Shown here one piece after another: positions 3,038-19,449 of a stretch of DNA of 58,503 nucleotides; positions within the stretch are counted from its first letter, which is position 1, and each line of letters begins with the position of its first letter. Where the stretch lies: IMG/VR virus record IMGVR_UViG_3300032562_000025, positions 1-58,503 of that record; one strand, written 5' to 3'. The notes below the pieces were generated by a model that saw only the letters and a list, made by a program, of their open reading frames with translations, was not told where the DNA came from and did no database searches. The translations under genes and the position numbers were made by a program. The stretch comes from a virus (taxonomy: Duplodnaviria; Caudoviricetes).

Positions 3038-3435
3038 TAACCAAATCAGAGTTTATAACCGATCTGGTCATTGAGTTGATTGACGAAGAGAAGAACATCT
3101 GGAAACTCCACGAACCTCTGATCTATCATAGTGTCCTCGCAAAGTGTTCTATCTGCGTACCAGAGGAGTTTATGACAGACCTTGCCAGTGTGCCGCGTGT
3201 ACCTATTCTGTACTTACGATGGGGGAACCGAGCCCATAGAGAAGCCGTCATTCATGATTACCTTTACTGTATTAATTCAGAGCCTGTCGTCACATTTGAC
3301 CAAGCTAACGATATTTTCAAAGAGGCCATGATTTCAAGAGGGAAGCCGGAAGATATTGTCGGGCCAATGTATGAAGGGGTTTGTGTCGGGGGTAAGTCAC
3401 ATTTTCATAAACGATACGTGGAGGATAAGCTATGA
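3034..3435 (+). CDS. DUF1353 family protein
   Basis: VPEEFMTDLASVPR, AVIHDYLY and ANDIFKEAM motifs typical of DUF1353. Confidence 0.85.
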   Translation: MITKSEFITDLVIELIDEEKNIWKLHEPLIYHSVLAKCSICVPEEFMTDLASVPRVPILYLRWGNRAHREAVIHDYLYCINSEPVVTFDQANDIFKEAMISRGKPEDIVGPMYEGVCVGGKSHFHKRYVEDKL

Positions 3436-3584
3436 AGTTTGATAACAACACCATTGCCCTTATCGGCCTGCTTATCATAGCCTTTGCATCGTTGTTCGCT
3501 ATGCCTGCTATTTCAGAAAAGGTTATCACGCTGATTGCTGGTGGAATAATTGGGTTTATGGCGAAGGAGAAAGGATCAGAGTAG
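3432..3584 (+). CDS. 50-aa two-TM membrane protein (holin-like), not in the ORF track
   Basis: MKFDNNTIALIGLLIIAFASLFAMPAISEKVITLIAGGIIGFMAKEKGSE, with RBS GAGGA and ATGA coupling to DUF1353. Confidence 0.6.
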   Translation: MKFDNNTIALIGLLIIAFASLFAMPAISEKVITLIAGGIIGFMAKEKGSE

Positions 3585-3600
3585 TTATATATTTATAATT

Positions 3601-3646
3601 AGAGGTAACGTAATTTTTACGTTAATAATATAATTACGTTACCTCT
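3601..3646. terminator. Perfect 15-bp inverted repeat between the convergent arms (bidirectional terminator), containing a CGTAA-N3-TTACG site
   Basis: agaggtaacgtaatt (3601-3615) pairs with aattacgttacctct (3632-3646). Confidence 0.65.
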
Positions 3647-3664
3647 TTAACTTAATTTATTACT

Positions 3665-4297
3665 TTACTGGATTTGATAAAACTTAATAATAAATTGTGG
3701 ATTTGCCGTTGATGTATGATAACCTGGCAATACCGCCAGCGCACCAGTCGAACCACCATTCGCATATTGTTCTGACGATCCCCCGCTTAATCCTCCGCCA
3801 ATACCGCCCGTTGTCACGCTGTCCTTAAACTGGACAACATACCTGATATTGCCCTTCAAACCCTGTGCCTTGTCAATGAGTGTTTTCTCAAGATCTTCAA
3901 GTCGTATCCGTGATAGGAATGAACCACTATATATGGCGAGGACCTTCACGACCACATCCTTCTTGTAATCAAGCGGGATAAGGGCAGGGTTGGCGAACTT
4001 TGGAAGGGTCGTATAATCGCCGATTCTACCATTAAGAAGGATAGGAAGTTCAATGGGAGTTATATTTGGAGTTGTCAGCAATGGCCTGTCTGTGACTACT
4101 GACACGCCAGTATTGTTGTTCATGGGTGCATTGATACCCTGCACCTGTCCTTGAAGTTGCCCCTGTTGCTGACCCTGCGTTTGTGCCTGTAGGCTTGTGA
4201 CTGTGATTTTTGCCGGTTCATTGCACTGCTGATTCGCAAATACCGGACTTGCCATTAATACCAATACTAATGCTACCATTACTAAGTTCTTTCTCAT
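3665..4297 (-). CDS. Secreted/periplasmic protein with signal peptide and Q/G-rich segment
   Basis: MRKNLVMVALVLVLMASPVFA-NQQ, QGQQQGQLQGQVQG, RBS AGGAGG before ATG 4297. Confidence 0.7.
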   Translation of the reverse strand: MRKNLVMVALVLVLMASPVFANQQCNEPAKITVTSLQAQTQGQQQGQLQGQVQGINAPMNNNTGVSVVTDRPLLTTPNITPIELPILLNGRIGDYTTLPKFANPALIPLDYKKDVVVKVLAIYSGSFLSRIRLEDLEKTLIDKAQGLKGNIRYVVQFKDSVTTGGIGGGLSGGSSEQYANGGSTGALAVLPGYHTSTANPQFIIKFYQIQ

Positions 4298-4359
4298 TTT
4301 GTTACCTCCTTTTATTTTGATATATACAACTCTTGTTTTCCCAAATTGTCTTGAATGAG

Positions 4360-4851
4360 TCATTCTCCCTCCATCCCTTTAATCAGCATTAACAACGCTG
4401 GTGATTTGATTGTGCCGGTCAAGTTGCAATTATTACATTTTTGACGGTCTGGATTCCATTGTGCGATAGGGCATTTGATTAGGCCCCATTCCTGATGATC
4501 ATAGAGATATTGCAGGAAGTTATCGGCTTGAAGTTGAGCGTTTACAACCATTGTGGCATTTTCTTCTCTCTCCCAAATTTCATAGGCAGTTTGTCTTAAA
4601 TATTTATCCCACACTTCCGGCATCTGCTCAACAATCTTGTCGATGGTATCGTAGGATAGGCGGGAGCCAGTGAAGGGATTGTATTGAGCAGTATGCAGAG
4701 GATACGGAGTATTTGAACAATTTTTTAGTGTTCTAACACCACATGAGCAATATCTAAATTCTATTCCATCAATATCAGTTTCATATCTATCCCACTCATG
4801 CCAGCACATCCCCAGCAACTTCGCCATAAATTCTGCTTTCCAGTCGTTCAT
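4360..4851 (-). CDS. Hypothetical Cys-rich protein
   Basis: RBS AGGAGGA before ATG 4851. CWHEW, CSC, CP..CNNC. Confidence 0.6.
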   Translation of the reverse strand: MNDWKAEFMAKLLGMCWHEWDRYETDIDGIEFRYCSCGVRTLKNCSNTPYPLHTAQYNPFTGSRLSYDTIDKIVEQMPEVWDKYLRQTAYEIWEREENATMVVNAQLQADNFLQYLYDHQEWGLIKCPIAQWNPDRQKCNNCNLTGTIKSPALLMLIKGMEGE

Positions 4852-4894
4852 AATCCTCCTTGAAAGGGTAGGGACAGGCACGTCGTGACTTGTT

Positions 4895-4922
4895 TTTCCT
4901 TGCTCAAGGGATGACCACACGT
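4895..4922. repeat. 28-bp repeat copy 1 (copy 2 at 18426-18453)
   Basis: tttccttgctcaagggatgaccacacgt vs tttccttgctcaagggaagaccatacgt, 26/28 identical. Confidence 0.8.
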
Positions 4923-4953
4923 CTTAGTTATGCGTTTCGCCCTACCCATTTTA

Positions 4954-5178
4954 TTATTTTCTTTTTGTGCAGGAACACGGTCTGTAAAAACAGATATGTC
5001 CTCCTTTTGTGTATGGTTTACTCTTGAAACTCCCCTTTCCATAACAGAAATGACAATTAGGGTTTGGCTCTTTGTCAAGTTCCGTCATTGAATGATCTAC
5101 TTGATTGAGCAACTCCTCAAATGTCTCTTCTACTTCTTTACTCTGGAATGTGTGGATGTGCCCGCTCTGATCGTCCAT
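4954..5178 (-). CDS. Small zinc-finger protein (CxxCxGxG)
   Basis: CHFCYGKG...RPCSC, RBS AGGAGG. Confidence 0.55.
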   Translation of the reverse strand: MDDQSGHIHTFQSKEVEETFEELLNQVDHSMTELDKEPNPNCHFCYGKGSFKSKPYTKGGHICFYRPCSCTKRK

Positions 5179-5179
5179 T

Positions 5180-5386
5180 CTATTCCTCCTTTAAAATCCC
5201 ATCGGTCAGCAACATTGCCTCATCATTATGCTCTGGGTGATTATCTATAATGTGATTTGCCATTTTCAGCCACCCAGACCGTCTTTTACCTTTCTTGGTT
5301 GTATACCATATGGGAGTTGTAAATACACAATATTTACAATGGATTATCCCTCTCGTAAACATATTCCCTCCTTCATCCACTTCCAA
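5180..5386 (-). CDS. Small C2H2-like zinc-binding protein (start may be internal MFTRG)
   Basis: HCKYC...NHIIDNH. Confidence 0.45.
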   Translation of the reverse strand: MEVDEGGNMFTRGIIHCKYCVFTTPIWYTTKKGKRRSGWLKMANHIIDNHPEHNDEAMLLTDGILKEE

Positions 5387-5569
5387 GCTGGATGTTCAAT
5401 TTTGCCTTGACTACATTTTACATCCAACCACTTAAAAGTTTAATAGCTTTCTTTCTAAACTTAAGTAAGTCCCAACCAGCATAGTCATCCTCGCACTTAT
5501 CAAATTTCCAGGTCAGCCATCCAAGTTGTCTATTAAATTCCCTTTTAATCTCAACCATTTTAAACCTCC

Positions 5570-6823
5570 TCATTTATTTTTATGCTTTTCATTATATTCA
5601 TCAGTCAATTTAACATAAAAGTCAGCATTATAAAACCACACACCACCTTCACCCTTCGGCCCAATAAACTGTTTAACAACACGCCCAGTTCGAGTTACCG
5701 TATTCATTACGTTATCAAATTTACTTGAATCCAAATCCCTCCAAGTCATGTCAATTAATTCCTTTTCATTAATTGCTTTTCTCAAATTCATTATCTGAAA
5801 TATTGTATCAATCTCTGAAGTTACTTCAGATTTACCAACAGCACGAAAGACATTGACCATATCAACTTCAATTTCTTCAATCAATTGAATTGATTCTTGA
5901 ATATAATCCCATTCCATACTTAACTTGCTTGTTTTTGCTGCTCCACAAACTTGAGCAACTTTCAATATGTAAGATGGTTTCCTTGAATACCAACCATTGA
6001 ATGTTGGATCTTTACATAAACGATCAGGATTATCTTCCTCATATTCATTATACCAATTATCCCACTTTTCACCTGAATCCTTAGAAAATTCATAATTTCC
6101 TACCATTCTTGAAATCACAAATAAGTCATCAATTAAATGTGCTTCCAATTTTTGAATTTCCTTACTATTTACCGGCCTCGAACATTTCTTATATTTTTGT
6201 GTAGCCCAGATGAATAATATTCTACTTGTCAAACCACCACCAATTGCTGAACTTGGAAAACATGAAGCAACTGAATCTGGTGTTGTAGCTGCAATTAAAT
6301 TTAAGAAAGGTGATGGAATCTTATTCGAACCTGAATGTTTTGTTCTGTACTTCCATGGAATTTCCTTTGAATCAAATAAATCAGTAAGCAAGACAAGCAT
6401 TTTTGTATTTTCCTTTTTCTGACCTAAAAATGATTCAAATTCCCTTGAGACGATGTTCAATGAAGAATGTCTAAATAATGTCCCATCTGGCATTTGTTCA
6501 TCAGTTGCTGATGTTTCCAAATCGTCGAGCAATGCTTCCTTCGATGTTGCATCTGCTGACTGAACCAACTCGGTTATGTTTGACATTATCTTAACACCAA
6601 AATCAATAGCTTGGCTCTTACGAGCCCGACCTGGTTCAGCAACAAATACTAAGTAAAGATTTGGATAAACACGCAATCGGCCCAAATTTAAGCAAATTTT
6701 TTTTCTCAATGCTCCAGCAATTACTGAAATTCCTGTCCATTTTTGAAATAACCTTGCTGGTTCGGTGTCCTCAGTATATTGCATATATGTTTTAAGCCAA
6801 TCCTTCAACTTACGATCAGCCAT
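5570..6823 (-). CDS. DUF3987/YfjI-like P-loop ATPase, putative replicative helicase
   Basis: YPNLYLVFVAEPGRARKS (Walker A variant), SREFESFL, LLTDLFD, IGGGLTSRILF. Lies downstream of PolA. Confidence 0.7.
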   Translation of the reverse strand: MADRKLKDWLKTYMQYTEDTEPARLFQKWTGISVIAGALRKKICLNLGRLRVYPNLYLVFVAEPGRARKSQAIDFGVKIMSNITELVQSADATSKEALLDDLETSATDEQMPDGTLFRHSSLNIVSREFESFLGQKKENTKMLVLLTDLFDSKEIPWKYRTKHSGSNKIPSPFLNLIAATTPDSVASCFPSSAIGGGLTSRILFIWATQKYKKCSRPVNSKEIQKLEAHLIDDLFVISRMVGNYEFSKDSGEKWDNWYNEYEEDNPDRLCKDPTFNGWYSRKPSYILKVAQVCGAAKTSKLSMEWDYIQESIQLIEEIEVDMVNVFRAVGKSEVTSEIDTIFQIMNLRKAINEKELIDMTWRDLDSSKFDNVMNTVTRTGRVVKQFIGPKGEGGVWFYNADFYVKLTDEYNEKHKNK

Positions 6824-7178
6824 TGATAATATCCCTGACCATTTGGTTTGAAATTAAACTTGACTTTGGTATTATTGGTATATTTAATTCATTTGCTAAC
6901 TTAATTTCGTCTTTCATTCCATTGGATATACACTCACCATATAACCATATTTCATCAATTATTCCTCGCTTAAATAATTCCTTACTATTTGCAATTCCTC
7001 TCATTCGTTCTCTCTTATTATCATCATTTAAGGCTAAGCAATCACTAATGTAAGGTGCATATGGAATAACATTATTAATTATTATATTTATATTTCTTAT
7101 AATATTTAATATTTTAGCTATATTATCTTCAACATTTCCACTTATCGGGTGAGCTATAAATACAACTTTAACTGACAT
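6816..7178 (-). CDS. DUF4406-like (nucleoside deoxyribosyltransferase-fold) protein
   Basis: VFIAHPISG...DEIWLYGECISNGMKDEIKLANELNIPI. Confidence 0.7.
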   Translation of the reverse strand: MSVKVVFIAHPISGNVEDNIAKILNIIRNINIIINNVIPYAPYISDCLALNDDNKRERMRGIANSKELFKRGIIDEIWLYGECISNGMKDEIKLANELNIPIIPKSSLISNQMVRDIING

Positions 7179-9558
7179 AATCTACCTCCCTTAAATCCTT
7201 CCAATTGTAACCGTATTTAAAATCAGAATCGACAATCATTTCTTCATGATTAACCATTATGACTTCCCTCATATGCTTCCTTAAATAATGCATCGCTTCG
7301 TACATTGTATCGTCAGTATCCTTAACCAAGACATAAACTGCATCATGCAATTGAAGCCATAAATGAATTAAGTCCACAATTTCATTATCTTCATACATTC
7401 TTACAATTGAACGATTCATTAAGTCACCAATCGTTGACTGTGGCTTGTATGAAAAGGCAGACTTAAATAATGAATCTCCCCATCTTTCTAAAAACCGATG
7501 CTGTCTTCCAAATAAATTAGCTAACGTTCGTGTTTGTCTCAATTCCTCAATAATTGAAGCTTGCCAAATTTTAAGTAATGGATTAGCAATATCATCCCTT
7601 TTTAATAATGACCTTGCCTCACCCAATGAGCAACCCAAGTGATCGGACAACGTCCCAGGCCCCATATCATAATTCCTTGCATGACGGATTGTTTTTCCCA
7701 CTTTCCTCATCTTCGGAGTTACATCATTTATATCTACACTGAATAAATCGGCTGCCTTCAAAATATGAACGTCCCATTCCTTATGCTTTTTACGCTCAGA
7801 AGTGGTTTTCCCAAATGATTCCTTAAACACCGAAATCATCCTTCGATCATTACTTAAATAAGCAACAACAACTGCTTCAGCTTGAATATAATCTGAAGTG
7901 ATGATTCTAAATCCCTTAGGTGCAATATACATTGATCTCGTGATTTCAGGAATGTTCTGCAAATTACCCGAACCGAAGGGAAGGATTATTGATTCAGATG
8001 AAGACCATCTTCCAAATGACTTCCTTCCTTCATCATCTTCATCCTTTGAATCAATTTTCTTACCTGTTATATTATACGAAGTATGAACCTTACCTTCAGG
8101 GCTTATATCAACATTAAGAAAGTTCAATAAGGTAAGGTTTTTCTTATGCTCAAGGATTAATGTAAATCCTGGATTATCCTTAACTGTCCGTTCCAAATAT
8201 TTAAGTGCATTTTTATCTGTGGTTATTTTTCGCTCATCACTTGCCTTCTTCCTTCGTTTATACTGAGTTGGTATATTAAGATCAGTATATAATAATTGTT
8301 GTAATTGTTTACTTGAACGATAATTAATTTTCTTCCCGAATAATTCCTCCAATCCTTTTTCAGTACTTTCAATAATTCCTTCAACTTCCTTAAGCAATCG
8401 TAAGCGTTCATCTTCATCAATCAATGTCCCTTGCAATTGAAGCATCATCGCTGGAGGTAATTGGCGCATTTCCCAATTATAAACATCCGTTTGATTAACT
8501 TCATTTAACTTTTTACTAAGCACATCAGCAATTCCATACATATTACAAACGTCACAAGCATTGTAATAAGATGGATGCTGAGTGTTGAAATGTTTCCAAG
8601 GTGGAACATCCAAACAAATTGAAGCCAAAAAACCCAAATCCCTTGGAAGTTCAGGCCATACGATATGAGCTGCAATTAATGTATCCATATGAATTCGCTT
8701 AATATGAATACCATGATTAAGCATTGTAACGATTGCATCGTAAGATGCGTTCTGAATGATGATTTCCTTTTCCTCAAGGACACGAGCAATCCAATACCAT
8801 AATTCAAACTCATCATTTTCAGGATAACAAGGAGACATTCCTCGCATTATCCAAGTTGACATTGCGTAATTCCTTGAATGGCCAAGGCCAATAATTGAGA
8901 TATGACTTCCTGGCTGAACGGTTTCAACGTCCAAGCCAATGACTTTCTTACCAGGGTCAATTAAGATTTCCCTACAATAATTAATAAATTGTTCCCTTGA
9001 TGCATCAGGGATAATTATTCGATTATCAACTGGCATTTGTGGATGCTTTGAGTGGAATTTTGCTTTCTTTAAATCCATAAGTGTTGGGAAGAAATTCTTA
9101 AACTCACGATTGATATTACTTGGATGATATGTGCATATAACCTTTTGGCCTTGAACTAAGTTTGAAGGAATGGTATATCCCCTAAACTTACTTATTGCTT
9201 TTTCACCAGTTAATGCCCACAACGCATATGATCCTAAGCCAATAACAACATTAGGCTTATTCCTTTCAATGTCTTCCTTCAATTCCTGAATCCATCCGCT
9301 TAATTCAGGTTTGGGCATGGTACATTCCTTATCAAGAAAATATTGATCCATCCTGTTGAATTGAGGTCGCTTCCTTGCCACGTTGACAATCAAACATTCA
9401 GCTCGATTAATCCCCGCTTGACTCAATAACCAGTTTAATGTTTTACCTGAAACTCCATTGTTTGAAAATGGCAAACCTTCCCTATCTTCATTTTCACCTG
9501 GAGCTTCGCCCACTATCATTATCTTTGAATGTTTTGGGCCAGTTAAACCAACGTACAT
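7168..9558 (-). CDS. polA: Family A DNA polymerase with N-terminal uracil-DNA glycosylase (family 4-like) and 3'-5' exonuclease domains
   Basis: UDG VGEAPGENEDREGLPF and TYHPS. Exo LDVET/QNASYD/YNACD. Pol motifs SDYIQAE, RKVGKTIRHARNY, LQLHDAV. RBS AAGGAG before ATG 9558. Confidence 0.92.
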   Translation of the reverse strand: MYVGLTGPKHSKIMIVGEAPGENEDREGLPFSNNGVSGKTLNWLLSQAGINRAECLIVNVARKRPQFNRMDQYFLDKECTMPKPELSGWIQELKEDIERNKPNVVIGLGSYALWALTGEKAISKFRGYTIPSNLVQGQKVICTYHPSNINREFKNFFPTLMDLKKAKFHSKHPQMPVDNRIIIPDASREQFINYCREILIDPGKKVIGLDVETVQPGSHISIIGLGHSRNYAMSTWIMRGMSPCYPENDEFELWYWIARVLEEKEIIIQNASYDAIVTMLNHGIHIKRIHMDTLIAAHIVWPELPRDLGFLASICLDVPPWKHFNTQHPSYYNACDVCNMYGIADVLSKKLNEVNQTDVYNWEMRQLPPAMMLQLQGTLIDEDERLRLLKEVEGIIESTEKGLEELFGKKINYRSSKQLQQLLYTDLNIPTQYKRRKKASDERKITTDKNALKYLERTVKDNPGFTLILEHKKNLTLLNFLNVDISPEGKVHTSYNITGKKIDSKDEDDEGRKSFGRWSSSESIILPFGSGNLQNIPEITRSMYIAPKGFRIITSDYIQAEAVVVAYLSNDRRMISVFKESFGKTTSERKKHKEWDVHILKAADLFSVDINDVTPKMRKVGKTIRHARNYDMGPGTLSDHLGCSLGEARSLLKRDDIANPLLKIWQASIIEELRQTRTLANLFGRQHRFLERWGDSLFKSAFSYKPQSTIGDLMNRSIVRMYEDNEIVDLIHLWLQLHDAVYVLVKDTDDTMYEAMHYLRKHMREVIMVNHEEMIVDSDFKYGYNWKDLREVDYVS

Positions 9559-9559
9559 T

Positions 9560-10876
9560 TTATTTATTCTCCTTCTGCTTTTCAATCCACTGCCCAATCC
9601 TTTCAACTGTAATCAAATAAGATTCATCCGAAATGTCGCAAGCAATTACGCTTAACTTTTGTTCAAGCCCCGCTTCAATAAATGCTCCACTCCCCATAAA
9701 TGGATCAGCCATAACCATACCCGGCAATGTGCATCGCTTAATTAATTCCATGCCAAGAGCTAATGGTTTTTCAGCTCCATGCTTTTTCTCACTTGGATTC
9801 ATTCGTGGCAACTGAATCCAATCAACCTTCCCTTCAACAATTAACTTCGATTCTGCTTTTCGAGCAAATAAACACATTTCATATGCTGAAGTTGGCCATT
9901 TACTTGGTTGGTTGGATTGTCCACTTGAACCCTTAATCCAGACAAACGGTTTTACATGAACAATCCAGCCGGCTTTTTCAAATATTTCCTTAATCTTCCA
10001 AAAATTCTCAGGGCCCAAAAACACCCAAGCATGTGCGTTGTCCTTTGTAAATCGGTAAGATTCAATTGCTAATGCTTCATATAAATCAAAGGCAATATCA
10101 TGGTCATCTTCATAAGTGAAACCCGTACCTGAAAACTCACCACCAGTTTGCCCACCGATTCCGATAGCAATTTCATCAATATCAATTCCATAAATCGGAT
10201 CAGTTAAAAGTAAATCAACTGATTTACTCGGAATTGTTTTCATAAAAACCTTCGCATCTGCCTTTGAAATAATCACTGGCAATTCAACATCCTTCGTCAT
10301 TTCTTTATATTTTTCAAGTGCATCAATACGTCTTACAACATTTTCAATGCCTTTGGCTGCTTTCTTAATCTCGGTTTTTGTTTTTGCTTCTTTCAATTCA
10401 GGATATTTGTGAATCATTTCTGCCAATTGTAACGCTTCCCTTACGTTACCTTCCGTTCTGCCCATTACTTCAGCCGTATCTTCAAGTCGCCAACCTTCAG
10501 GATTTGAACGATCTGAAGCTGACCCATGACGTTCAATCCTTATCCGATGCAATTCTTCAATTGCTAAAACTTCTTCAGCAGGAGTGAAATTTTCTCTCTG
10601 CAAATTTTCTTCAATTTCCATTTCTCTCATTTCACTTTTATCAAGTGTATCGTTAAAACAACAGTGTGCATTTATACCTAAAATCATGCAAGCGGCTAAT
10701 CGCCGACCACCTGCAATTAATTCATAATTTCGATTTATCAATATGGGTAATAACTGACCATACTTTTTGATTGAGTCGGCCAATTCATTTATTTTATTTA
10801 TATCTTGTCGAACACGTGGTAAATCTTCATTAATTTTAATTTGAGATGGATTAACTTCGAGGATTTCCTTACCCAT
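9560..10876 (-). CDS. ParB-like N-terminal domain + HTH fused to an N6-A/N4-C DNA methyltransferase
   Basis: LADSIKKYGQLLPILI, LIAGGRRLAA, EENLQRENFTPAEE, HTH WRLEDTAEVMGRTEGNV. MTase TDPIY, H..EKP, DPFMGSG (beta-class motif order). Confidence 0.88.
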   Translation of the reverse strand: MGKEILEVNPSQIKINEDLPRVRQDINKINELADSIKKYGQLLPILINRNYELIAGGRRLAACMILGINAHCCFNDTLDKSEMREMEIEENLQRENFTPAEEVLAIEELHRIRIERHGSASDRSNPEGWRLEDTAEVMGRTEGNVREALQLAEMIHKYPELKEAKTKTEIKKAAKGIENVVRRIDALEKYKEMTKDVELPVIISKADAKVFMKTIPSKSVDLLLTDPIYGIDIDEIAIGIGGQTGGEFSGTGFTYEDDHDIAFDLYEALAIESYRFTKDNAHAWVFLGPENFWKIKEIFEKAGWIVHVKPFVWIKGSSGQSNQPSKWPTSAYEMCLFARKAESKLIVEGKVDWIQLPRMNPSEKKHGAEKPLALGMELIKRCTLPGMVMADPFMGSGAFIEAGLEQKLSVIACDISDESYLITVERIGQWIEKQKENK

Positions 10877-10891
10877 TTAATTTCTCCTTAT

Positions 10892-11134
10892 TCATTCCAT
10901 TTTCATCTTCATTAAATCTTTTTGAGACAATCCCAACTTCTTAATCAATTCCTTTTCAGAGTCCGTCAACGTAAAATTTACGTTACCTGACTTCTTTCCT
11001 TTTGTAACCTTAACTTTTGAAGCAATATATGTTTGAATGTCAATATTCCTTCGTTTACGATATTCAGCAAACATTTTAACTTGTTCATCGTGAGTTGATT
11101 GAAGGAATAATGGTTTTAACTGTTCAAATCTCAT
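10892..11134 (-). CDS. Hypothetical protein
   Basis: ORF in the operon with coupled start/stop. Contains a CGTAA-N3-TTACG site at 10970. Confidence 0.6.
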   Translation of the reverse strand: MRFEQLKPLFLQSTHDEQVKMFAEYRKRRNIDIQTYIASKVKVTKGKKSGNVNFTLTDSEKELIKKLGLSQKDLMKMKME

Positions 11135-11310
11135 TTAATTACTCCATCCTTTTTCAATGATCTTCTCATGAAATCTGCGACAAGTTGTTCGTTTGATTCT
11201 TCCTTGAGTTGATCAGATGAACCAACTGAAGTTTCATAGCCAAACTCATCTTTAGCTTTACCATAATTCTTTTCATGACAAATCTTCATACCTAACTTTA
11301 ACTTTTCCAT
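11131..11310 (-). CDS. 59-aa hypothetical protein, not in the ORF track
   Basis: MEKLKLGMKICHEKNYGKAK..., RBS GGAGG, stop overlaps next start. Confidence 0.55.
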   Translation of the reverse strand: MEKLKLGMKICHEKNYGKAKDEFGYETSVGSSDQLKEESNEQLVADFMRRSLKKDGVIK

Positions 11311-11327
11311 AATTTACCTCCCAAAAA

Positions 11328-11433
11328 TAAGGGAAGGATGGTGTGCCGCAGATTATTATCCTCTACGCTGCCTTTCACACCACTTTCATATCGGTTTGTT
11401 GAGGAACCTACACCGATACTATCCCTTCCCTTA
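11328..11433 (-). ncRNA. Candidate structured RNA (three-way junction)
   Basis: Minus-strand stems aagggaaggga/tccttccctt, tatcggt/accgata, gtggtgtg/cacaccat and cgtaga/tctgcg, followed by a U tract. Confidence 0.45.
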
Positions 11434-11440
11434 ATTTAAT

Positions 11441-11992
11441 TTACGTTGTTACCTGAACCATCCGGTCAATCTCATTGCTGAATCTGCCTTCATACTCACG
11501 AATTTTGATTTTGACATCCACGCTCAACCCAATCCATTCCTTATTTGCAATTGCTTCAGCTACAATTTTCCCGCTATTCATATTAACCTTCATGTTCTTG
11601 GAAAACTGCATAAGCATATTTATTTTTGCCTGCCTTTTCGTTCCCCTTCCACTCGAATCGGGAATATTTTCGTCTCCAGGCAACGGCATCCAATTCCTGT
11701 AAAAATGTTTACTTCCATCAAGTGGAGTCTCACCATCACTCATCAAACCACCATTGTCGTTAAGGACGACTTCCCACTGAATTGCTTGTTTCTCAACATT
11801 AAATGTTACGTTTGTCACTGCACCGTGGTAAGTTCCGTTCGGAACCAATGGACTTGCCTTCCACTCACCATCAAGATCAAAATCAGTCTGAATACCAATG
11901 CCATCACCCATGCCTGGAACAAAACCTCCTTCATTTGATTTTTCATACTCTGGAACAAATTCATCGCTTGTTGCTTCGTTACGCTTAGCCAT
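11441..11992 (-). CDS. DUF669-like single-stranded DNA-binding protein
   Basis: LVPNGTYHGAVTNV...WIGLSVDVKIKIREYEGRFSNEI, downstream of an AAA_24 ATPase as in Sak4 modules. Confidence 0.7.
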   Translation of the reverse strand: MAKRNEATSDEFVPEYEKSNEGGFVPGMGDGIGIQTDFDLDGEWKASPLVPNGTYHGAVTNVTFNVEKQAIQWEVVLNDNGGLMSDGETPLDGSKHFYRNWMPLPGDENIPDSSGRGTKRQAKINMLMQFSKNMKVNMNSGKIVAEAIANKEWIGLSVDVKIKIREYEGRFSNEIDRMVQVTT

Positions 11993-12096
11993 GTTATTGG
12001 CCTCCTTTAAATATATTTTAGCTCATTACTGAGCTTGCTGCCTTTTGTTCTTTGTACTTATTTACTCCTATGCCCAATGTTGGGCTGGTGCTTTGA

Positions 12097-12285
12097 TTAA
12101 ATTGAATCTCCATTGATTCCCTTTACTCTTCTATTTAACTCACTTACCGTTTCCTGATATTGTCTTTCAAGATGTGGGGCTAAAATTGGATCTTTACCTA
12201 CTTTTTCAAGATCATTTTTAATCCTATCTCCAAAGGCAATACGATTTTGTAATTCTTGGTCAGTACATTCATTAACTGGCTTCAT
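12097..12285 (-). CDS. Hypothetical protein
   Basis: Coupled ORF (ATGA overlap). Confidence 0.55.
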   Translation of the reverse strand: MKPVNECTDQELQNRIAFGDRIKNDLEKVGKDPILAPHLERQYQETVSELNRRVKGINGDSI

Positions 12286-13022
12286 TTTTTCACCACCTTG
12301 TTTAAATGTTGCATAACTTCAATATAATTGTTACCAACAAAATCAGGAAGTAAATGTTCAATTCCACTCAAACGTGATCTTGCCCGTAAAAATCCAATTG
12401 GTACTGTTTGAAGTAAATATATTGTTTTGATTACTCCATTAATATTTTCCCTTTTTGTTGTAGCATAATAAACTTCATCGAAATAACCAGTAATTAATTT
12501 TGGTAGTTGGCCAGGTAATGATGGGTCAACTCTAATAACTGCACCTGTTGCTTTATCTGTAATAATTTCATCATGAGAAATTAAAACAATATTACAAGGT
12601 AAACTTATAATTTGTCTTAATTTACCCTCCATTAAGTTTCTTACTAATGAATAGTGTACTTGCCATAATGGACCACCTGCTTCATTCCTCTTCGGGTCAA
12701 GGGCTAATGCCTGTTCCATAGTTACTGACTCCATTGACGTTAAATCATCTACAACTACTGTCTGGTAAACTCCTTCTTTTGCTTTTTTAATAACTTCAAT
12801 ATGTGCTTTTTCGAATTCTCTCCAGCCTTGCTGTGTTAATTGGAATGTATCATAATCAAAATCTTTTCCTTTGTATGAAATTATACTGTTAGAAAAATCA
12901 TAAACATATCCTTTTGTAGGAAAAGTTGAAGCAAATATACTTTTTCCTGTTGAAGGAGGCCCAATAATTAGACATTTAATAAATTCAGTATTAACTGTTA
13001 CATCCATTGCACTTGATGGCAT
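12282..13022 (-). CDS. AAA_24/Sak4-like ATPase (recombinase)
   Basis: GPPSTGKS Walker A, VVVDDLT Walker B, NIVLISH, GYFDEVY, ARSR. Confidence 0.85.
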   Translation of the reverse strand: MPSSAMDVTVNTEFIKCLIIGPPSTGKSIFASTFPTKGYVYDFSNSIISYKGKDFDYDTFQLTQQGWREFEKAHIEVIKKAKEGVYQTVVVDDLTSMESVTMEQALALDPKRNEAGGPLWQVHYSLVRNLMEGKLRQIISLPCNIVLISHDEIITDKATGAVIRVDPSLPGQLPKLITGYFDEVYYATTKRENINGVIKTIYLLQTVPIGFLRARSRLSGIEHLLPDFVGNNYIEVMQHLNKVVKK

Positions 13023-13042
13023 TTTAAATCACCCCTTTAAAT

Positions 13043-13690
13043 TTAGTCAATTATTTTTGGATAAAAATCAACTGGAAACATTGCCTCAATAATTTCAGGC
13101 TTATTTTTAAATGCATCTCTGAAAAATCGTTGAGCAATTACTTTATCATTATCACTTAACTTCATATATTTTTCAAACATTGACTTTGCATAAGTTAATT
13201 CATTCTTGAATGACCATGCCTCGTCAACTTTTGCAAATACTTCAGATCTAATTGAAGATGTTTCTTTAACAAACTTATCATATTCATCTTTCTTTTTTGT
13301 AAACTCCTTTTTAAGCTTTTCATTTGTTATCAGCATATCCCTGACTTTATATATATTCTCCCCTGTGTAATATTTCTCTTGTTGCAATGATAAATCAGTA
13401 TCAGGTTCAGTCCATTGATATGAATAACCTATTCCACTGTAATCATACTTCATTTTGAGTACACTCATTTCAAGAACTTTTTGTGCGTCTTCTGCATTTT
13501 TAAACATCATACTTCCAACTTTAAAAACGATCTCGGTTTTTTGTAAGTCAAATTCACGGTATTCAGGTAATTGTGGTTCCATTACTGGCAAAATACCAGC
13601 AAATGCAATTTCAACATCAATTAAGTTTTGAATCTCATCCTGAGATAATTCCGTCAACTCATCATTAGTTAATTCATTAAAACGCTTCAT
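13043..13690 (-). CDS. Hypothetical protein
   Basis: 215-aa ORF with RBS AGGAGG. Confidence 0.65.
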   Translation of the reverse strand: MKRFNELTNDELTELSQDEIQNLIDVEIAFAGILPVMEPQLPEYREFDLQKTEIVFKVGSMMFKNAEDAQKVLEMSVLKMKYDYSGIGYSYQWTEPDTDLSLQQEKYYTGENIYKVRDMLITNEKLKKEFTKKKDEYDKFVKETSSIRSEVFAKVDEAWSFKNELTYAKSMFEKYMKLSDNDKVIAQRFFRDAFKNKPEIIEAMFPVDFYPKIID

Positions 13691-13766
13691 GTTTAAACCC
13701 TCCTGGTTTATTTATTTCAATTCAGATACCGTAAATATTACGTTATCAATTTATTGATTAATTGAC

Positions 13767-14870
13767 TTATTCTCCATCCTCAATCAACTCAACATCCCAA
13801 AATTGTTGCTTAAACCCTTCAGGAATGTTCTCAACAAATTCACTCGGTTCAGTGTTACTCGTACATAAGCCATAAAATTGACACTTACGGTTATAATCAA
13901 AGCAAGAATCGAATTGACATGGAAAATAATTACTTTTCTCACATTGATAAATATCTCCGCACGTTTTAAGGAAGGACATTTTCCACTTAAAAATATCATC
14001 ATCTGTAAATATTTGTGGAGTACGTGAAAAATCAATCGTTACCTTTCCATATTCACCTGACTTGCCCTTCCTTGAAAACAACTGGTGCAATGTCACCAAT
14101 GCGCCTGTGGCATCGAAGTTAAGCACACGTTTAGCAGCATAAGAATACCCAATGATTTGAGGGGAACGATATAAACGGGCTTCTTGAATAGCTAACGATT
14201 GTCCAGTTGTCTTAAATTCATCAATCCACTTCGTTTCGTTTAACTTCATTTGTAAATCCAACTTCCCTGTATAAACAATAGGTGGTAAGTAACCAAACAT
14301 TTCAGCTTCAATCTCCGTTTCCAACTCCATTACCAATGAAAACACTTGTTCAGTTGCAATAACTTCCAATGTATTTTGGTCAGCTTCAAAATGAGTAATG
14401 TAATTAATAAATGAAGTGGTACAATTTTCAAAGGTACGATAATCATCCCAGAACATTGCACCTTCACTACTTTCATCCCATGACTTTTTACCAAGTAAGA
14501 TCGCATTATTAATAGCAATACTTCGTTTAGCCCATCCGTATTGCTTAATTGTTCCATAAAACCCTTCCATAAATGCATGAAAACAACTTCCATATCTTAA
14601 TGCAGTTGAGCCATAAATGGATTTAAGACCAAGCATATGGCTTAACTGGAATTTTCGTAAGCATCGAACTGCCGTTGATCGCTTCGTATTGTCCAATCTA
14701 ATTTCAGTCAAATAAGAACGAATTGGTAATGTCTGAACTTGTTCTTGATTTGAATTGGTTAAGAATTGATTTTGATTTGAGTATGATGGTTTTATTATTG
14801 CTTCGGATTCTAAATTGAATTCTTCGATGACTTCAGTATTAAGGACATTAATCTCAATTTCATTTGCCAT
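13767..14870 (-). CDS. PD-(D/E)XK (RecB/Cas4-like) exonuclease
   Basis: RCLRKF, YGSCFH, GKLDL, IDEFKTT, QIIGY and the C-terminal Cys cluster SCFDYNRKCQFYGLC. Confidence 0.85.
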   Translation of the reverse strand: MANEIEINVLNTEVIEEFNLESEAIIKPSYSNQNQFLTNSNQEQVQTLPIRSYLTEIRLDNTKRSTAVRCLRKFQLSHMLGLKSIYGSTALRYGSCFHAFMEGFYGTIKQYGWAKRSIAINNAILLGKKSWDESSEGAMFWDDYRTFENCTTSFINYITHFEADQNTLEVIATEQVFSLVMELETEIEAEMFGYLPPIVYTGKLDLQMKLNETKWIDEFKTTGQSLAIQEARLYRSPQIIGYSYAAKRVLNFDATGALVTLHQLFSRKGKSGEYGKVTIDFSRTPQIFTDDDIFKWKMSFLKTCGDIYQCEKSNYFPCQFDSCFDYNRKCQFYGLCTSNTEPSEFVENIPEGFKQQFWDVELIEDGE

Positions 14871-14904
14871 TTTATCCACCTTTCCCTCATTTCAGGGTTT
14901 TAAA

Positions 14905-14960
14905 AACATGGCTAAGGATATGTGATCAAGGGGTAGGATTCACATTCCTTAGCTCATGTT
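14905..14960 (-). terminator. Long imperfect hairpin (terminator or RNA processing site)
   Basis: aacatg-gctaagga-tatgtga pairs with tcacat-tccttagc-tcatgtt, with a U run downstream on the minus strand. Confidence 0.55.
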
Positions 14961-14987
14961 GCCTTCAATTAAATGAAGGCTCGAAAA

Positions 14988-15437
14988 TTACAGTTTAAAT
15001 CCGAGTTTTGCAAGAAGAGCCATTGCAACTTCCTGGTCCTCACTGGAAAGACCAGCGATTTTGGACTTAACATCAGACTTACTGATTTTCTCAGCAGCAG
15101 GTGCACGAACTGTCCAATCGTTAGCCATAAGACCATTCCATACTTTTGTGATGGAAGTAACAACTTCCTGCCCTGATTTACCAGCACCGGCATCACCCAA
15201 CTTATGACCAAGACCAAATGGGCCAAGTTTGGCCTGAATTTCCATTGGAAGATCATTAAAATCGAAGTTTAATACCGTTCCGGTCACACCTTCAGTCAAT
15301 GTTACAATCGTACCTTCAAAACTTTTACCGAGTTTTTTCTTTTTTACTTCCGTTTCACCTGCTGGTGTTCCTACTTCATTTACATTTGTATCAAGTTCCA
15401 TACCTTCCTCCTGTTCTCCTTTTGATTTTCTGCTCAT
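14988..15437 (-). CDS. Hypothetical phage protein (probable paralog of 21603..22061)
   Basis: RBS AAGGAG. LPMEIQAKLGPFGLGHKLGDAGAG motif. Confidence 0.7.
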   Translation of the reverse strand: MSRKSKGEQEEGMELDTNVNEVGTPAGETEVKKKKLGKSFEGTIVTLTEGVTGTVLNFDFNDLPMEIQAKLGPFGLGHKLGDAGAGKSGQEVVTSITKVWNGLMANDWTVRAPAAEKISKSDVKSKIAGLSSEDQEVAMALLAKLGFKL

Positions 15438-15637
15438 TTTATATCTCCTTTTTGGTTTATATTCCTCAGGGAATTGCTCCCTTTTAAGGTCTCCTTTTTA
15501 CTTCTTTTCTCCTCAGTGGTAAGGAATAATTCGAGGGAATGTTTCAATAATTCGTCAAGTGTCATGCAACTCCTAACAACATAATCCTTCGCTTTAATAT
15601 ATAAATCAGTATCAATTTTTGCCTGAATGTGTCTCAT
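15434..15637 (-). CDS. Ribbon-helix-helix DNA-binding protein
   Basis: MRHIQAKIDTDLYIKAKDYVVRSCMTLDELLKHSLELFL matches the Arc/CopG strand-helix-helix pattern. Confidence 0.65.
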   Translation of the reverse strand: MRHIQAKIDTDLYIKAKDYVVRSCMTLDELLKHSLELFLTTEEKRSKKETLKGSNSLRNINQKGDIK

Positions 15638-15641
15638 TTCT

Positions 15642-15890
15642 TTATCCTTTAAGTGGAGGTATACTAACTGCAGTTATAATTGCATCAAGGGCATCTTCAA
15701 CCGTAATACCACCTTTCATTACATCAGTTAAGATTGACCTTGTATATTCAGTAATATCACTTGTGCAAATACAATCTCCCCACTTACAACTTATTACGCA
15801 AGTATCATTTTTCTCATGGAGTTCCTTATGCTTACATTTTGGTGAGTTACATTTTTCATTGTTTACACATCTAAAACTTTGTCCTTTCAT
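15642..15890 (-). CDS. Cys-rich hypothetical protein
   Basis: RBS GGAGG. First gene after the promoter at 15935-15963. Confidence 0.55.
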   Translation of the reverse strand: MKGQSFRCVNNEKCNSPKCKHKELHEKNDTCVISCKWGDCICTSDITEYTRSILTDVMKGGITVEDALDAIITAVSIPPLKG

Positions 15891-15934
15891 AAAACCTCCA
15901 TGATTTCATCATTAATCGTTCATTTAATACCCAT

Positions 15935-15963
15935 ATATTATCATAATTCAATGAAGATGTCAA
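15935..15963 (-). promoter_or_regulatory. sigma70-type promoter (leftward)
   Basis: TTGACA-17 nt-TAATAT with extended TG, nearly identical to the promoter at 20080-20108. Confidence 0.75.
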
Positions 15964-16003
15964 TATAAATATTGAAGTTCATGCAATTATATTAAGTTCA
16001 TAA

Positions 16004-16453
16004 TCATAATGGATATAATTTGCATGATAATTCCATTATCTTTTCAATTAATTCCTCCTTACTCATTTCATTTAAGATCATATTACATAATTTGCATCGG
16101 TTGTCAGTTGCATTTAAAACCCTGAATTCTTCTGGCTTAATGGATAAGTGAATCGCAATTAATGCTGTCCTTTCCTCATCCCAAGCCATTTTAAACCATT
16201 GTTCCCTAATGGTGTTACACGTTTTACACTTAATGATTGCAACTAAGTTATACTCCTCAACTGCTTTCTTTTTGGGTGACTTAATAAATGATTTGTTTAT
16301 CTTATTCATTCCTGCCTTAACGATTGCTTCAGGCACAATTCCCAATTTAACTAACAATTCAGCAGTTGCATTTCTCTTATCAATTGGTAAATCGTAAAGG
16401 AGTTGGGTTATCTTGCCTAACTTAATGTCCGTTTTATCACTCATTTTATTCAC
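16004..16453 (-). CDS. Hypothetical zinc-binding protein
   Basis: CKTC...CKLC. Confidence 0.6.
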   Translation of the reverse strand: MNKMSDKTDIKLGKITQLLYDLPIDKRNATAELLVKLGIVPEAIVKAGMNKINKSFIKSPKKKAVEEYNLVAIIKCKTCNTIREQWFKMAWDEERTALIAIHLSIKPEEFRVLNATDNRCKLCNMILNEMSKEELIEKIMELSCKLYPL

Positions 16454-16456
16454 CCC

Positions 16457-16798
16457 TTAATTAATTTTAATTCCTAACTTTTTCAAAACATTCATTTCAT
16501 CTTCAGTCAGCCATTTTGAAGTTGATTCCTGTTTTTGAGTTTCCCACTCAGCCCTTCCCAACTCAATAAATTGAGGGCATAAAAATAATCCTATGTTTAG
16601 CGTTAAACCCTTAAACAATGGAAATTTCCTTTCAATGTATTCATGAAACGTATCCTTAATTAATGAATGTGATAGTGTTATTTCTAAGCTCAATGGGCAG
16701 TCACCACCGTAATATTTACGCCCGAAATGGTACTTGTCGCAATTCAGACAAGTGATTAATGAATTATTAAGATTAACGCTTGGAATGTTTGGATTCAT
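16457..16798 (-). CDS. Hypothetical protein
   Basis: ORF in the operon, CLNC...CP. Contains a motif site at 16708. Confidence 0.55.
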   Translation of the reverse strand: MNPNIPSVNLNNSLITCLNCDKYHFGRKYYGGDCPLSLEITLSHSLIKDTFHEYIERKFPLFKGLTLNIGLFLCPQFIELGRAEWETQKQESTSKWLTEDEMNVLKKLGIKIN

Positions 16799-16949
16799 TT
16801 TCTTCCTCTCTTTGACTTAAGCACTCACGGATAATTAACTTCCGAATGATTTGGGAATATGATAAGTGTCCGGCAATCTTCCTTAACATTTCAAATTCAT
16901 TCGGCTTTAAGTAAACTGCTGCTTTCATTCGTCCGTTGTAACTGTGCAT
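16773..16949 (-). CDS. 58-aa ribbon-helix-helix-like protein, not in the ORF track
   Basis: MHSYNGRMKAAVYLKPNEFEMLRKIAGHLSYSQIIRKLIIRECL..., RBS GGAGG. Confidence 0.55.
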   Translation of the reverse strand: MHSYNGRMKAAVYLKPNEFEMLRKIAGHLSYSQIIRKLIIRECLSQREEENESKHSKR

Positions 16950-16952
16950 GGT

Positions 16953-17216
16953 TTAAACCTCCAATTTTGGGAAGATATATCCAATTATTTCTTCATCAAT
17001 CAATGGCTGAATTAATTTACCTTCTTCAGCCATAATTAATTGAAATACTGCATCGAATGTAGGTGCAGTTTTATAAATACCCTTATCAAGATAAATTGCA
17101 CACTCAGTTTGTATTTGTTTTTCTCTTCTTATATCTTCATTATAATGATAACTAACCGAAAAATACTTACCAGGAAATTCCTTTCTCATTGCTTCAACAC
17201 ACTCCTTAAATGTCAT
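16953..17216 (-). CDS. Hypothetical protein
   Basis: RBS AGGAGG, coupled ORF. Confidence 0.55.
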   Translation of the reverse strand: MTFKECVEAMRKEFPGKYFSVSYHYNEDIRREKQIQTECAIYLDKGIYKTAPTFDAVFQLIMAEEGKLIQPLIDEEIIGYIFPKLEV

Positions 17217-17530
17217 TGGATGTCCTCCTTTTTAATTGGCTCCCATTTTTCAATCTCTTTTAAGATTTCCATCAGATGCCAATAACCACAAAAATCCTTA
17301 GCTGCATCTTCCTTTTCATCCGTCAAATCATTTCCTTTCAACATCTTTTTAAGCTTATCATCCATTCGTAATTTCATTAAGTCTAATGCACTTCCTTTGG
17401 AATAAATGTTGATTGCTTCGAAGGCTGAATTTCCGTAAGCACGGTTTTTCTTAATTAAGAAATTTCCGTATTCAATCATATGCTTCCTTATTAACGATTC
17501 AACTTGTCTTTGTGTTGGTTTCCTTTCCAT
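17213..17530 (-). CDS. DUF1599 / nucleotide-modification-associated domain protein
   Basis: IKKNRAYGNSA, LRMDDKLKKM, EDAAKDFCGY. Confidence 0.7.
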   Translation of the reverse strand: MERKPTQRQVESLIRKHMIEYGNFLIKKNRAYGNSAFEAINIYSKGSALDLMKLRMDDKLKKMLKGNDLTDEKEDAAKDFCGYWHLMEILKEIEKWEPIKKEDIQ

Positions 17531-17819
17531 GTTTAATCCTCCTTAATTATTTATATTTTATTCATTTTTGCCGGTTTTGGTTTAATTAATCAATGGCAAT
17601 GCCATGCCATTTGACCGGAACATGGTTATTTTCTCGAAAAAATCGAGGTACATGGACAATCATACGCATTTTTGATTTTGCCAATATTAGCCCTCACTAA
17701 GGTTTACATTAATTTCATCCATACCGTAAATTTTACGATACCTCCCTCATGGCAATTTATTCAGTAAAATAACAAACAAAAAACCGAAAATTGGCCAAGC
17801 TAACCATAAGCAAATCACT

Positions 17820-18026: not shown

Positions 18027-18036
18027 TATTCATTCC

Positions 18037-18264: not shown

Positions 18265-18425
18265 TTTATTCTCCTTTCAAATAAAATTCATTTATCGAAT
18301 AAATTCAAGCCATAAATAATATCCTGCAATTATCCAAGATACAATTGCAATTATTATTGACCAAAATATTATCTTCATTTTAATTAACCTCAATTTGAAT
18401 TCACGACTTAAGACAAATTTAAACA

Positions 18426-19448: not shown

Positions 19449-19449
19449 T

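Follow-up and report, generated by a model that had tools for sequence, protein, structure and literature searches.

The phage record analysed here raises the question of which protein reads a set of palindromes dispersed over its genome. The record, IMG/VR virus record IMGVR_UViG_3300032562_000025, is a linear stretch of 58,503 bp (≈79% complete, 36% G+C), which was analysed over its full length and is called the window below; near-identical DNA was found in lake-water and freshwater metagenome runs only. On its minus strand, the window encodes a 438-residue protein in which a ParB-type N-terminal domain and a helix-turn-helix (HTH) are fused to a DNA methyltransferase, and an earlier sequence-only reading had proposed this fusion as the reader of the palindromes. 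We find that the fusion is a core gene of the replication module, adjacent to the DNA polymerase, throughout a large uncultured phage clade in which one family of evolving 25-bp composite palindromes is found at gene boundaries. The HTH pair of the fusion is the most likely reader and may dock on these palindromes, a view that we hold tentatively, with rather less than even confidence.

The palindrome CGTAANNNTTACG (CGTAA-N3-TTACG) occurs in 14 exact copies in the window, compared to no copies of a reversed-pattern control. With up to one mismatch allowed, 16 copies were found where 0.67 would be expected, and none of 100 shuffles reached 16. Nine of the 14 exact copies are fully intergenic and one more overlaps the end of an open reading frame (ORF), with 92% of the window being coding (binomial P 8e-9). 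The core is part of a composite 25-bp site with the layout 5-1-5-3-5-1-5, which in the window reads AGGTA or AGATA, N, CGTAA, W3, TTACG, N, TACCT or TATCT, mostly with the outer arm on one side alone. Sites are spaced throughout the genome at about one per 4 kb. The copies are listed below without strand, together with their counterparts in the closest relative, G001, or the motif scan on which the entry is based:

3609–3621: palindrome copy at a convergent gene junction, outer arm GAGGTA at left; syntenic with G001 site 46576
10970–10982: palindrome copy 94 nucleotides (nt) upstream of the fusion ATG, within an 80-residue ORF (10892–11134); no syntenic G001 copy
13730–13742: palindrome copy, intergenic, adjoining the PD-(D/E)XK nuclease gene; syntenic with G001 site 36490
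16708–16720: palindrome core without outer arm, within ORF 16457–16798; motif scan and flanks
17725–17737: palindrome copy, intergenic, outer arm TACCTCC; syntenic with G001 site 31323
20253–20265: palindrome copy in the left arm of a 67-nt inverted repeat flanked by divergent consensus promoters; motif scan
20528–20540: palindrome copy in the right arm of the 67-nt inverted repeat; the region corresponds to G001 site 27360
22456–22468: palindrome copy in the divergent early/late intergenic region; motif scan
25531–25543: palindrome copy 10 nt past the large terminase gene; syntenic with G001 site 22949
32501–32513: palindrome copy 24 nt ahead of the stop codon of the Wzy_C-like gene; motif scan
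35731–35743: palindrome copy, intergenic, structural module; syntenic with G001 site 15576
43748–43760: palindrome copy, intergenic, structural module, outer arm on the other side; syntenic with G001 site 8119
48427–48439: one-mismatch copy (CGCAA...) within the 2033-residue gene, with a GTATCTGAAT flank as at 13730 and 52815; motif scan
52815–52827: palindrome copy overlapping the stop codon of the 2033-residue gene; syntenic with G001 site 1017
56233–56245: palindrome copy 32 nt past the annotated start of ORF 56201–56638; syntenic with G001 site 56730

The copy at 16708–16720 is possibly non-functional. Two of the regions listed have additional symmetry. At 3583–3664, the copy at 3609 is followed by a second half-site (3632–3645), and the two give inverted arms of 33 nt that are separated by 16 nt. 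At 20207–20586, the arms of the 67-nt inverted repeat are 81% complementary, lie 246 nt apart and contain one palindrome copy each; they enclose a (TA)n run at ≈20385–20403, and promoters are found on either side (20108–20080 on the minus strand and 20665–20693 on the plus strand). This inverted repeat is a candidate control region or origin.

The fusion gene and its parts were delineated as follows:

9560–10876, minus strand: ParB (N-domain and HTH)–DNA methyltransferase fusion gene, an ATG-started ORF of 438 residues (Pfam, PHROGs, structure)
10598–10867, minus strand: ParB N-terminal (CTPase-fold) domain, residues 4–93 (Pfam and six-frame family search)
10406–10495, minus strand: ParB/Noc-type HTH, approximately residues 128–157, WRLEDTAEVMG-RTEGNVREALQLAEM (DSSP helices, Foldseek, family alignment)
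10289–10378, minus strand: long connecting helix from the HTH to the methyltransferase, residues 167–196 (AlphaFold2 secondary structure)
9608–10219, minus strand: beta-class N6-adenine/N4-cytosine DNA methyltransferase domain, residues 220–423 (Pfam, Protein Data Bank (PDB) profile, Foldseek, dimer prediction)

The 3′ end of the gene overlaps the start of the DNA polymerase gene (7168–9606) by 47 nt, and PHROGs assigns the product to both DNA methyltransferase and ParB-like families. The sequence-only reading had placed the ParB motifs AGGRR and EENLQR in one protein with the methyltransferase motifs DPIY and FMGSG. All four are indeed present in the translation (residues 55–59, 89–94, 226–229 and 393–397, respectively), and both Pfam domains score above their cut-offs: ParB_N (PF02195) at residues 4–93 (E 7e-10, 39.3 bits, cut-off 26.3) and N6_N4_Mtase (PF01555) at residues 220–423 (E 1.3e-17, 64.9 bits, cut-off 26.7). 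The ParB_N boxes comprise a Box I-like LPRVR, a Box II of the form GxxRxxA, GGRRLAA, and a Box III of the form ENxxR, EENLQR. In the family alignment of 31 homologues (44–71% identity), residues R21, R23, G56, G57, R58, R59, E89, N91 and R94 are invariant, as are D226, P227, G395 and S396 in the methyltransferase. The N-terminus, MGKEILEVNP, does not contain the ParA-activating LG-R/K-GL motif.

The HTH, also part of the sequence-only reading, was recovered by structure. In the AlphaFold2 model built on the family alignment (mean predicted local distance difference test (pLDDT) 84.9), DSSP assigns helices at residues 131–138 and 142–157, and G139 marks the start of the putative recognition helix. 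Foldseek aligned the N-terminal ≈195 residues with a C-terminally truncated Noc (7nfu_B; 195 columns, 27% identity) and also with ParB structures 7bnk_B, 6sdk_B and 1vz0_A. The alignments to 7nfu_B, 7bnk_B and 6sdk_B cover 191–195 columns and thus span the N-domain and the HTH; therefore, both domains are present in the fusion. No HTH scored above the Pfam cut-off, and the only match was a weak one to Sigma70_r4_2 at residues 127–152 (E 0.032).

In the methyltransferase domain, motif IV (DPIY) precedes motif I (FMGSG). The canonical form of motif IV is (D/N/S)PP(Y/F/W); its second proline is replaced by isoleucine in the fusion and is P, I, L, A or M among the homologues, while the aspartate, the first proline and the aromatic residue are kept. 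PDB profile searches matched this half to M1.HpyAVI (E 9e-19) and CcrM, and Foldseek matched it to CcrM (6pbd), M.BceJIV (8urk), M1.HpyAVI (5hfj) and MboIIA, with E values from 4e-13 to 3e-11, and also to RsrI. The methyltransferase occupies the C-terminal half of the protein, and a ParB C-terminal dimerisation domain is absent. The fusion is predicted to form a homodimer (ipSAE 0.71, compared to 0.00 for the best of three controls), by a mark that is reached by 20 of 30 proteins solved as one-chain pairs, compared to 1 of 23 with single-chain structures. The dimer runs showed at least 56% contact agreement and a partner pLDDT of at least 74, and the predicted interface is symmetric and lies inside the methyltransferase domain (residues 289–353 and 381). 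Beta-class methyltransferases crystallise as dimers, so that this result may mirror the likeness of the fusion to solved structures.

The fusion is widespread. Among 8000 candidates scored, 2470 proteins belonged to the family at E ≤ 0.001, and 107 of the 120 family matches listed contained both ParB_N and N6_N4_Mtase. A family-alignment search showed that 220 of 595 candidate IMG/VR stretches encode fusion relatives. The window and its closest relatives have in common a module that consists of a DUF3987 primase/helicase, a PolA fused to a uracil-DNA glycosylase, the fusion, a 183-residue protein (for which the only lead was to DUF669 clusters resembling single-stranded DNA-binding proteins), an AAA_24 ATPase, a PD-(D/E)XK nuclease and a 149-residue protein. 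When relatives were selected by their polymerase, the fusion was found just upstream of the polymerase in 71 of 80 loci, and the other nine all end within 1.2 kb upstream of the polymerase. GenBank phages that share this backbone are Microcystis phage Mel-JY34, Vibrio phage vB_VspS_VS-ABTNL-3 and Desulfofustis phage LS06-2018-MD01. All relatives of the window found by tblastn were <33% identical; Megablast of 25 kb against GenBank phages gave no match, and a scan of viral contigs with a single window protein yielded no close relative. Two viral contigs each carried one copy of an 18-nt motif; neither shares a protein with the window, and both are therefore chance matches.

The closest relative, G001 (59,395 bp, ≈70% amino acid identity), contains nine exact copies of CGTAAT-W-ATTACG, compared to none for the control. 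Eight of these nine are located at gene boundaries that are syntenic with those of window copies: one follows the terminase gene, three belong to the structural module, one follows the giant gene, and the others are next to the nuclease gene, within the early region and at the convergent junction. On manual reading, the side of the asymmetric flank agreed at four syntenic sites and differed at three. No palindrome copy was found upstream of the G001 fusion gene.

The window motif CGTAANNNTTACG is absent from all 80 fusion-selected loci (L007–L086). We considered this absence as a refutation of docking and rejected it, since class-agnostic scans found variant palindromes in the relatives: many fusion-bearing relatives have palindromes of their own with the geometry of those in the window. 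(K-mer motif discovery was discarded, as it was dominated by coding bias and missed the motif of the window itself.) The following classes were distinguished:

GTCAA-N3-TTGAC, outer arms AGAAA and TTTCT: most relatives (118 distinct sites)
TTCAA palindrome class: L088
TTTAA palindrome class: L007, L089 and L090
GTGAA palindrome class: L014, L160 and L162
TACACA palindrome class: L106
CGTAA palindrome class: the window and its closest relative, G001

At least three exact copies of one palindrome (lnP ≤ −11) were present in 37 of the 80 polymerase-selected loci, and in 30 of these 37 the palindrome was of the GTCAA-N3-TTGAC type. Four of six whole records that looked empty within ±10 kb contained 5–7 GTCAA sites, compared to 0 for the control.

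Two further records have palindromes of other types. Desulfofustis phage LS06-2018-MD01 (L169) has six copies of GTCCCAA-N-TTGGGAC, at 249, 2251, 15474, 23059, 29970 and 41281, with outer arms GCTAT and ATAGC. In record G011 (L173–L176), GTCCA/TCCAA-type palindromes are found near the record ends, at 247, 58503, 59748 and 60594, together with no GTCAA sites, and may represent a small site cluster instead of a genome-wide array.

The known HTHs of the ParB/Noc/KorB type read 13–16-bp palindromes, and the fusion contains the only recognisable palindrome-reading domain that is conserved along with the motif family. The only other recognisable sequence-specific HTH in the window belongs to a rival candidate:

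18488–18706, minus strand: XRE/Cro-type HTH_3 protein of 72 residues, rival candidate reader (family search E 9.2e-8, 28.6 bits, above cut-off)

A spurious plus-strand ORF overlaps this gene at 18488–18706. The XRE protein had no homologue at E < 1 in the relative loci examined, the whole of G001 included, and no HTH_3 was detected in G001 at E ≤ 0.1; the protein thus does not co-occur with the motif in these relatives. Sub-threshold HTH_3 matches in G003 and W01 fell in frames of 449 and 435 residues that are consistent with fusion genes, and the W01 match lies inside the annotated coding sequence of the fusion.

The recognition region of the fusion also varies with motif class. In an unbiased scan of about 178 eligible columns of the fusion, only residues 130 and 146 separated the motif classes, and both are in the HTH; the chance of both falling within residues 128–157 is 0.006. 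Residue 142 is K or R in all 19 GTCAA-class sequences and E in both CGTAA-class sequences. At residue 146, the classes have:

GTCAA: I, V, A, T or Y
CGTAA: R
TTCAA: I
TTTAA: S
GTGAA: S
TACACA: E

By inspection of the motifs, residues 139–142 of the fusion would correspond to G170-K171-S172-R173 of ParB, and residue 142 to R173. HMM (hidden Markov model) and sequence searches did not align the fusion HTH to the ParB HTH. R173 is described as the main specificity residue that separates ParB from Noc (PMC7383237).

Other observations weigh against the fusion as reader. The covariation between HTH and motif is no stronger than in control proteins: class-discriminating columns were found at similar rates in PolA (8 of 357), the helicase (2 of 198), the 183-residue protein (2 of 66) and the AAA_24 protein (1 of 90), and two of these control columns, PolA 686 and AAA_24 140, show the behaviour of fusion column 146. 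In a quick maximum-likelihood tree, the CGTAA, TTCAA and TTTAA classes form one clade, leaving only about three independent departures from GTCAA. Strong dispersed palindromes were present in 8 of 43 loci whose phages gave matches to the methyltransferase domain only, compared to 2 of the 10 close fusion loci and 1 of the 12 distant ones; with frequencies this similar, there is no statistical association with the fusion. Four of five such control phages have no ParB_N, and one of these ParB_N-free controls is a genome that is 100% complete and has 11 copies within the 20.6-kb locus examined. Conversely, the fusion is present in G011 (whole record, 100% complete) with at most 3–4 weak sites, in G012 (whole record, 75% complete) with no clear palindrome family and in the more distant isolate Microcystis phage Mel-JY34, likewise with no clear family, while Vibrio phage vB_VspS_VS-ABTNL-3 has only a weak one. 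A PDB sequence search with the HTH segment by itself returned no ParB match.

The position of the sites argues in the same direction. In relatives, their median distance is 9 nt from the preceding stop codon and 26.5 nt from the start that follows, and such fixed placement at gene boundaries fits a role of another factor in expression equally well. The sequence-only reading had noted a copy about 95 bp upstream of the start codon of the fusion gene, which we measured at 94 nt (10970–10982). A site just upstream of the gene was found in only 5 of 21 relatives, corresponding to two lineages, and an autoregulatory site at this place was rejected as not conserved; G001 does not have it. It had also been proposed that co-occurrence of fusion and motif across related genomes would test the link. 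This comparison cannot discriminate: with the fusion in 71 of 80 loci and the other nine cut off upstream of the polymerase, the fusion is universal in the clade and no motif-bearing, fusion-free relative is obtainable. Finally, the accessible part of a PNAS 2025 survey does not list N6N4-methyltransferase fusions with the binders of CTP or ATP, and it describes nucleotide preference as not predictable from sequence (PMC12704722).

These observations give some weight to the possibility that the palindromes are operators or regulatory sites at gene boundaries for another phage protein, for example the 149-residue protein encoded at 14988–15437, or else for a host factor. In that case, the fusion would act as an ordinary anti-restriction methyltransferase, with the ParB module serving nucleotide-regulated activity, non-specific DNA binding or nicking. 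We regard this as a serious possibility, falling well short of probable. It agrees with the retention of site positions at gene boundaries, with the palindromes in phages that do not have ParB_N and with the fusion-bearing relatives that do not have an array. There is also room for such a reader, as most early proteins have no Pfam or PHROGs match, and the 149-residue protein is kept in >50 relatives and has no recognisable fold. A non-specific nicking activity has been reported for a B. cereus prophage ParB–methyltransferase (PMC3592412). However, no further conserved DNA-binding domain was found, the XRE protein is missing from the motif-bearing relatives, and the ParB-type HTH of the fusion would have no target. 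It is unlikely that the reader is a host factor, because the motif differs between related phages. (The fold model of the 149-residue protein, encoded on the minus strand, has a pLDDT of 85 and shows three strands followed by five helices; it had no significant PDB match, with a best Foldseek E of 0.27 and a best VIA Z of 4.3.)

Two other explanations were considered. If the elements acted in RNA, as hairpins that terminate, process or stabilise intergenic transcripts in the manner of RNase III sites, weak terminators or PeSL-like terminator–promoter cassettes, their intergenic placement just past stop codons would be expected, and in relatives the AGAAA flank is indeed similar to an A-tract and the TTTCT flank to a T-tract. 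When the 14 sites were folded as RNA with ±12 nt, the energies lay between −1.8 and −11.8 kcal/mol; among the copies that fold well are 32501 (−11.8 kcal/mol) and 10970 (−10.8 kcal/mol). However, a mere 5 bp of A/U-rich stem make up the conserved core, and for 6 of the 14 sites the fold is no better than that of shuffles (z-score above −1). Inspection of the flanks revealed no U tract after any of the 14 window copies, and none of seven terminator-like sites predicted in 3001–23000 coincides with a copy. The outer arm is mostly one-sided (71 of the 118 sites in relatives, compared to 22 with both arms and 25 with none), and its orientation relative to transcription is mixed among the window copies. 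Strong consensus sigma-70 promoters are located elsewhere (20665–20693 and 22819–22847 on the plus strand; 20108–20080 and 15963–15935 on the minus strand). The motif was rejected as a −35 element for most copies, since a −10-like hexamer is found 16–17 nt past TTTACG at 20253, 20528 and 35731 alone, and no −10 appears in the position matrix of the 118 sites in relatives. A role in RNA is thus quite improbable. Rather, the sites have a weak A/T-rich core of 5 bp, a 3-bp spacer that varies, a flank that is optional and one-sided, and no fixed orientation. These features fit a dimeric protein that reads double-stranded DNA, and the sites, judged by their sequences, appear to behave as binding sites of this kind and are a poor fit to an RNA element or a directional promoter. 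Least probable of all, in our estimate, are sites for replication, recombination or packaging that are unlinked to the fusion, such as priming or origin-like signals, hot spots of module shuffling or nick sites. Two copies do sit in the 67-nt inverted repeat around the AT-rich (TA)n run between divergent promoters, and a three-gene block that is absent from G001 (28887–32537) ends at a site, but the sites are palindromic and spread over both genome arms, and most occur singly between ordinary genes that run in the same direction. Phage nick motifs described so far are specific to one strand and not palindromic, unlike the sites here (PMC11780129).

We return to the fusion as reader of the dispersed palindromes. 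The parts of this proposal that held up are the character of the sites, which resemble targets on double-stranded DNA, the fusion as sole carrier of a conserved palindrome-reading domain and its predicted dimer; association and covariation, by comparison, did not discriminate. In this reading, the fusion is an enzyme, predicted to be homodimeric, with a ParB nucleotide-binding N-domain and HTH that are joined by a long helix to a methyltransferase in place of the ParB dimerisation domain. The palindromes could serve as docking sites similar to parS or OB, which tether the methyltransferase to phage DNA or load it there. The nucleotide-pocket motifs are intact. After docking, nucleotide binding would close the N-gate, and the clamp would diffuse between the sites, about one per 4 kb, leading to rapid and complete methylation solely of DNA that has the phage's own sites. 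This full model, in which the enzyme slides and methylates between sites after gate closure, appears unlikely. We are similarly doubtful of the broader scheme of a ParB clamp that has a methyltransferase dimer as its C-terminal part and loads at private palindromes, with recognition helix and palindrome co-diversifying through the GTCAA, CGTAA, TTCAA, TTTAA, GTGAA and TACACA classes; under that scheme, each lineage would possess a private address code.

In the window, early and replication genes are on the minus strand at ≈3.7–22 kb, and the plus strand from ≈22.8 kb encodes a terminase (gpA type), a P22-like portal and structural proteins. Family searches of the record (79% complete) agreed with the earlier observation that parA and integrase genes are missing: no ParA was found with AAA_31 and CbiA, no tyrosine integrase was found, and no second ParB_N was detected besides the one in the fusion. 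The polymerase encoded at 7168–9606 on the minus strand is an 812-residue family A enzyme with an N-terminal domain of the uracil-DNA-glycosylase superfamily, and is kept in relatives. The 2033-residue ORF on the plus strand (46718–52819) has no Pfam family. Its counterparts in relatives are giant genes of 870–1555 residues (23–25% identity), and the homologue position in the Vibrio phage is annotated as 'putative DNA methylase'. We considered whether this protein might be a virion RNA polymerase that reads hairpin promoters and rejected the idea, as both a DxDGD-type motif and a Pfam match are absent. The three-gene block at 28887–32537 (plus strand) lies within the structural module, has no orthologues in G001 and terminates at the palindrome copy at 32501. 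It encodes a 541-residue protein with a Wzy_C O-antigen-ligase domain (E 6.4e-15) and may be inserted cargo that modifies the host surface. At 54424–56178 (plus strand), a 584-residue protein has an N-terminal Mtd_N (major tropism determinant) domain (E 2.7e-12).

The fusion architecture itself was already in print. What is new here is the fusion as a core gene of the clade, the clade-wide evolving palindrome family and the synteny of sites with G001. The sequence-only reading had known of no described link between a ParB–methyltransferase fusion and a genome-wide site array, and our literature search likewise found no paper tying the two together. The system offers candidates that can be tested directly, namely a defined 25-bp site, natural variants of it in relatives and two to three recognition-helix positions that differ between variants. 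If true, the link would provide the first ParB-type switch by which an enzyme is directed to its own replicon, along with a new form of self-DNA marking by phages. If the link fails, the palindromes would still be a conserved gene-boundary signal of a large phage group, most of it uncultured, to which isolates on Microcystis and Vibrio belong as well as the Desulfofustis phage record.

Among known systems, the methyltransferase half is closest to CcrM, M.BceJIV, M1.HpyAVI and MboIIA, with which it shares the fold and the order of motif IV before motif I; the predicted dimerisation of the fusion is through the catalytic domain. In contrast to the fusion, these enzymes have no ParB module, and their motif IV is DPPY rather than DPIY. 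Chromosomal ParB–parS and Noc–NBS share the N-domain boxes and the HTH fold with the fusion. The recognition helix of the fusion starts with G-K-[ST]-[RK], which on inspection appears equivalent to ParB G170-K171-S172-R173 (PMC7383237). The window differs from these systems in that it does not have ParA, the LG-R/K-GL motif or the ParB C-terminal domain, and in that its sites, of 13–25 bp, are A/T-rich and distributed genome-wide at ≈1 per 4 kb instead of clustered at an origin.

Fusions of the ParB-CTPase fold to an N6_N4 methyltransferase, the same domain pair as in the window, have been catalogued as enriched in phages and prophages and are among the commonest phage ParB fusions, with a suggested role in anti-defence; the accessible part of that survey gives no DNA target, site array or mechanism for them (PMC12704722). 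ParB176, a phage ParB-like protein, is likewise coupled to a DNA-modifying enzyme that acts after replication: it activates the phage thymine dioxygenase 5mYOX176 and is required on double-stranded DNA (PMC13229309). ParB176, however, is a separate protein with no obvious DNA-binding domain in the published description available, and mutations of its nucleotide pocket had no effect, whereas the window protein is fused, bears an HTH and is a methyltransferase (PMC13229309).

The array has a further counterpart on the plasmid RK2, where OB sites are dispersed over a replicon of ≈60 kb. KorB of RK2 is a repressor and a CTP-dependent sliding clamp of the ParB family that loads at OB, a 13-bp palindrome, near or far from promoters (bioRxiv 10.1101/2024.02.16.579611). 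KorB has its own C-terminal dimerisation domain, a KorA partner and no enzyme, whereas the window protein ends in a DNA methyltransferase. The two systems are alike in that a protein with a ParB N-domain and HTH is found together with 13-bp, odd-centred palindromes at or near gene starts, and in that, as far as the KorB account goes, a regulatory function does not need ParA-driven segregation.

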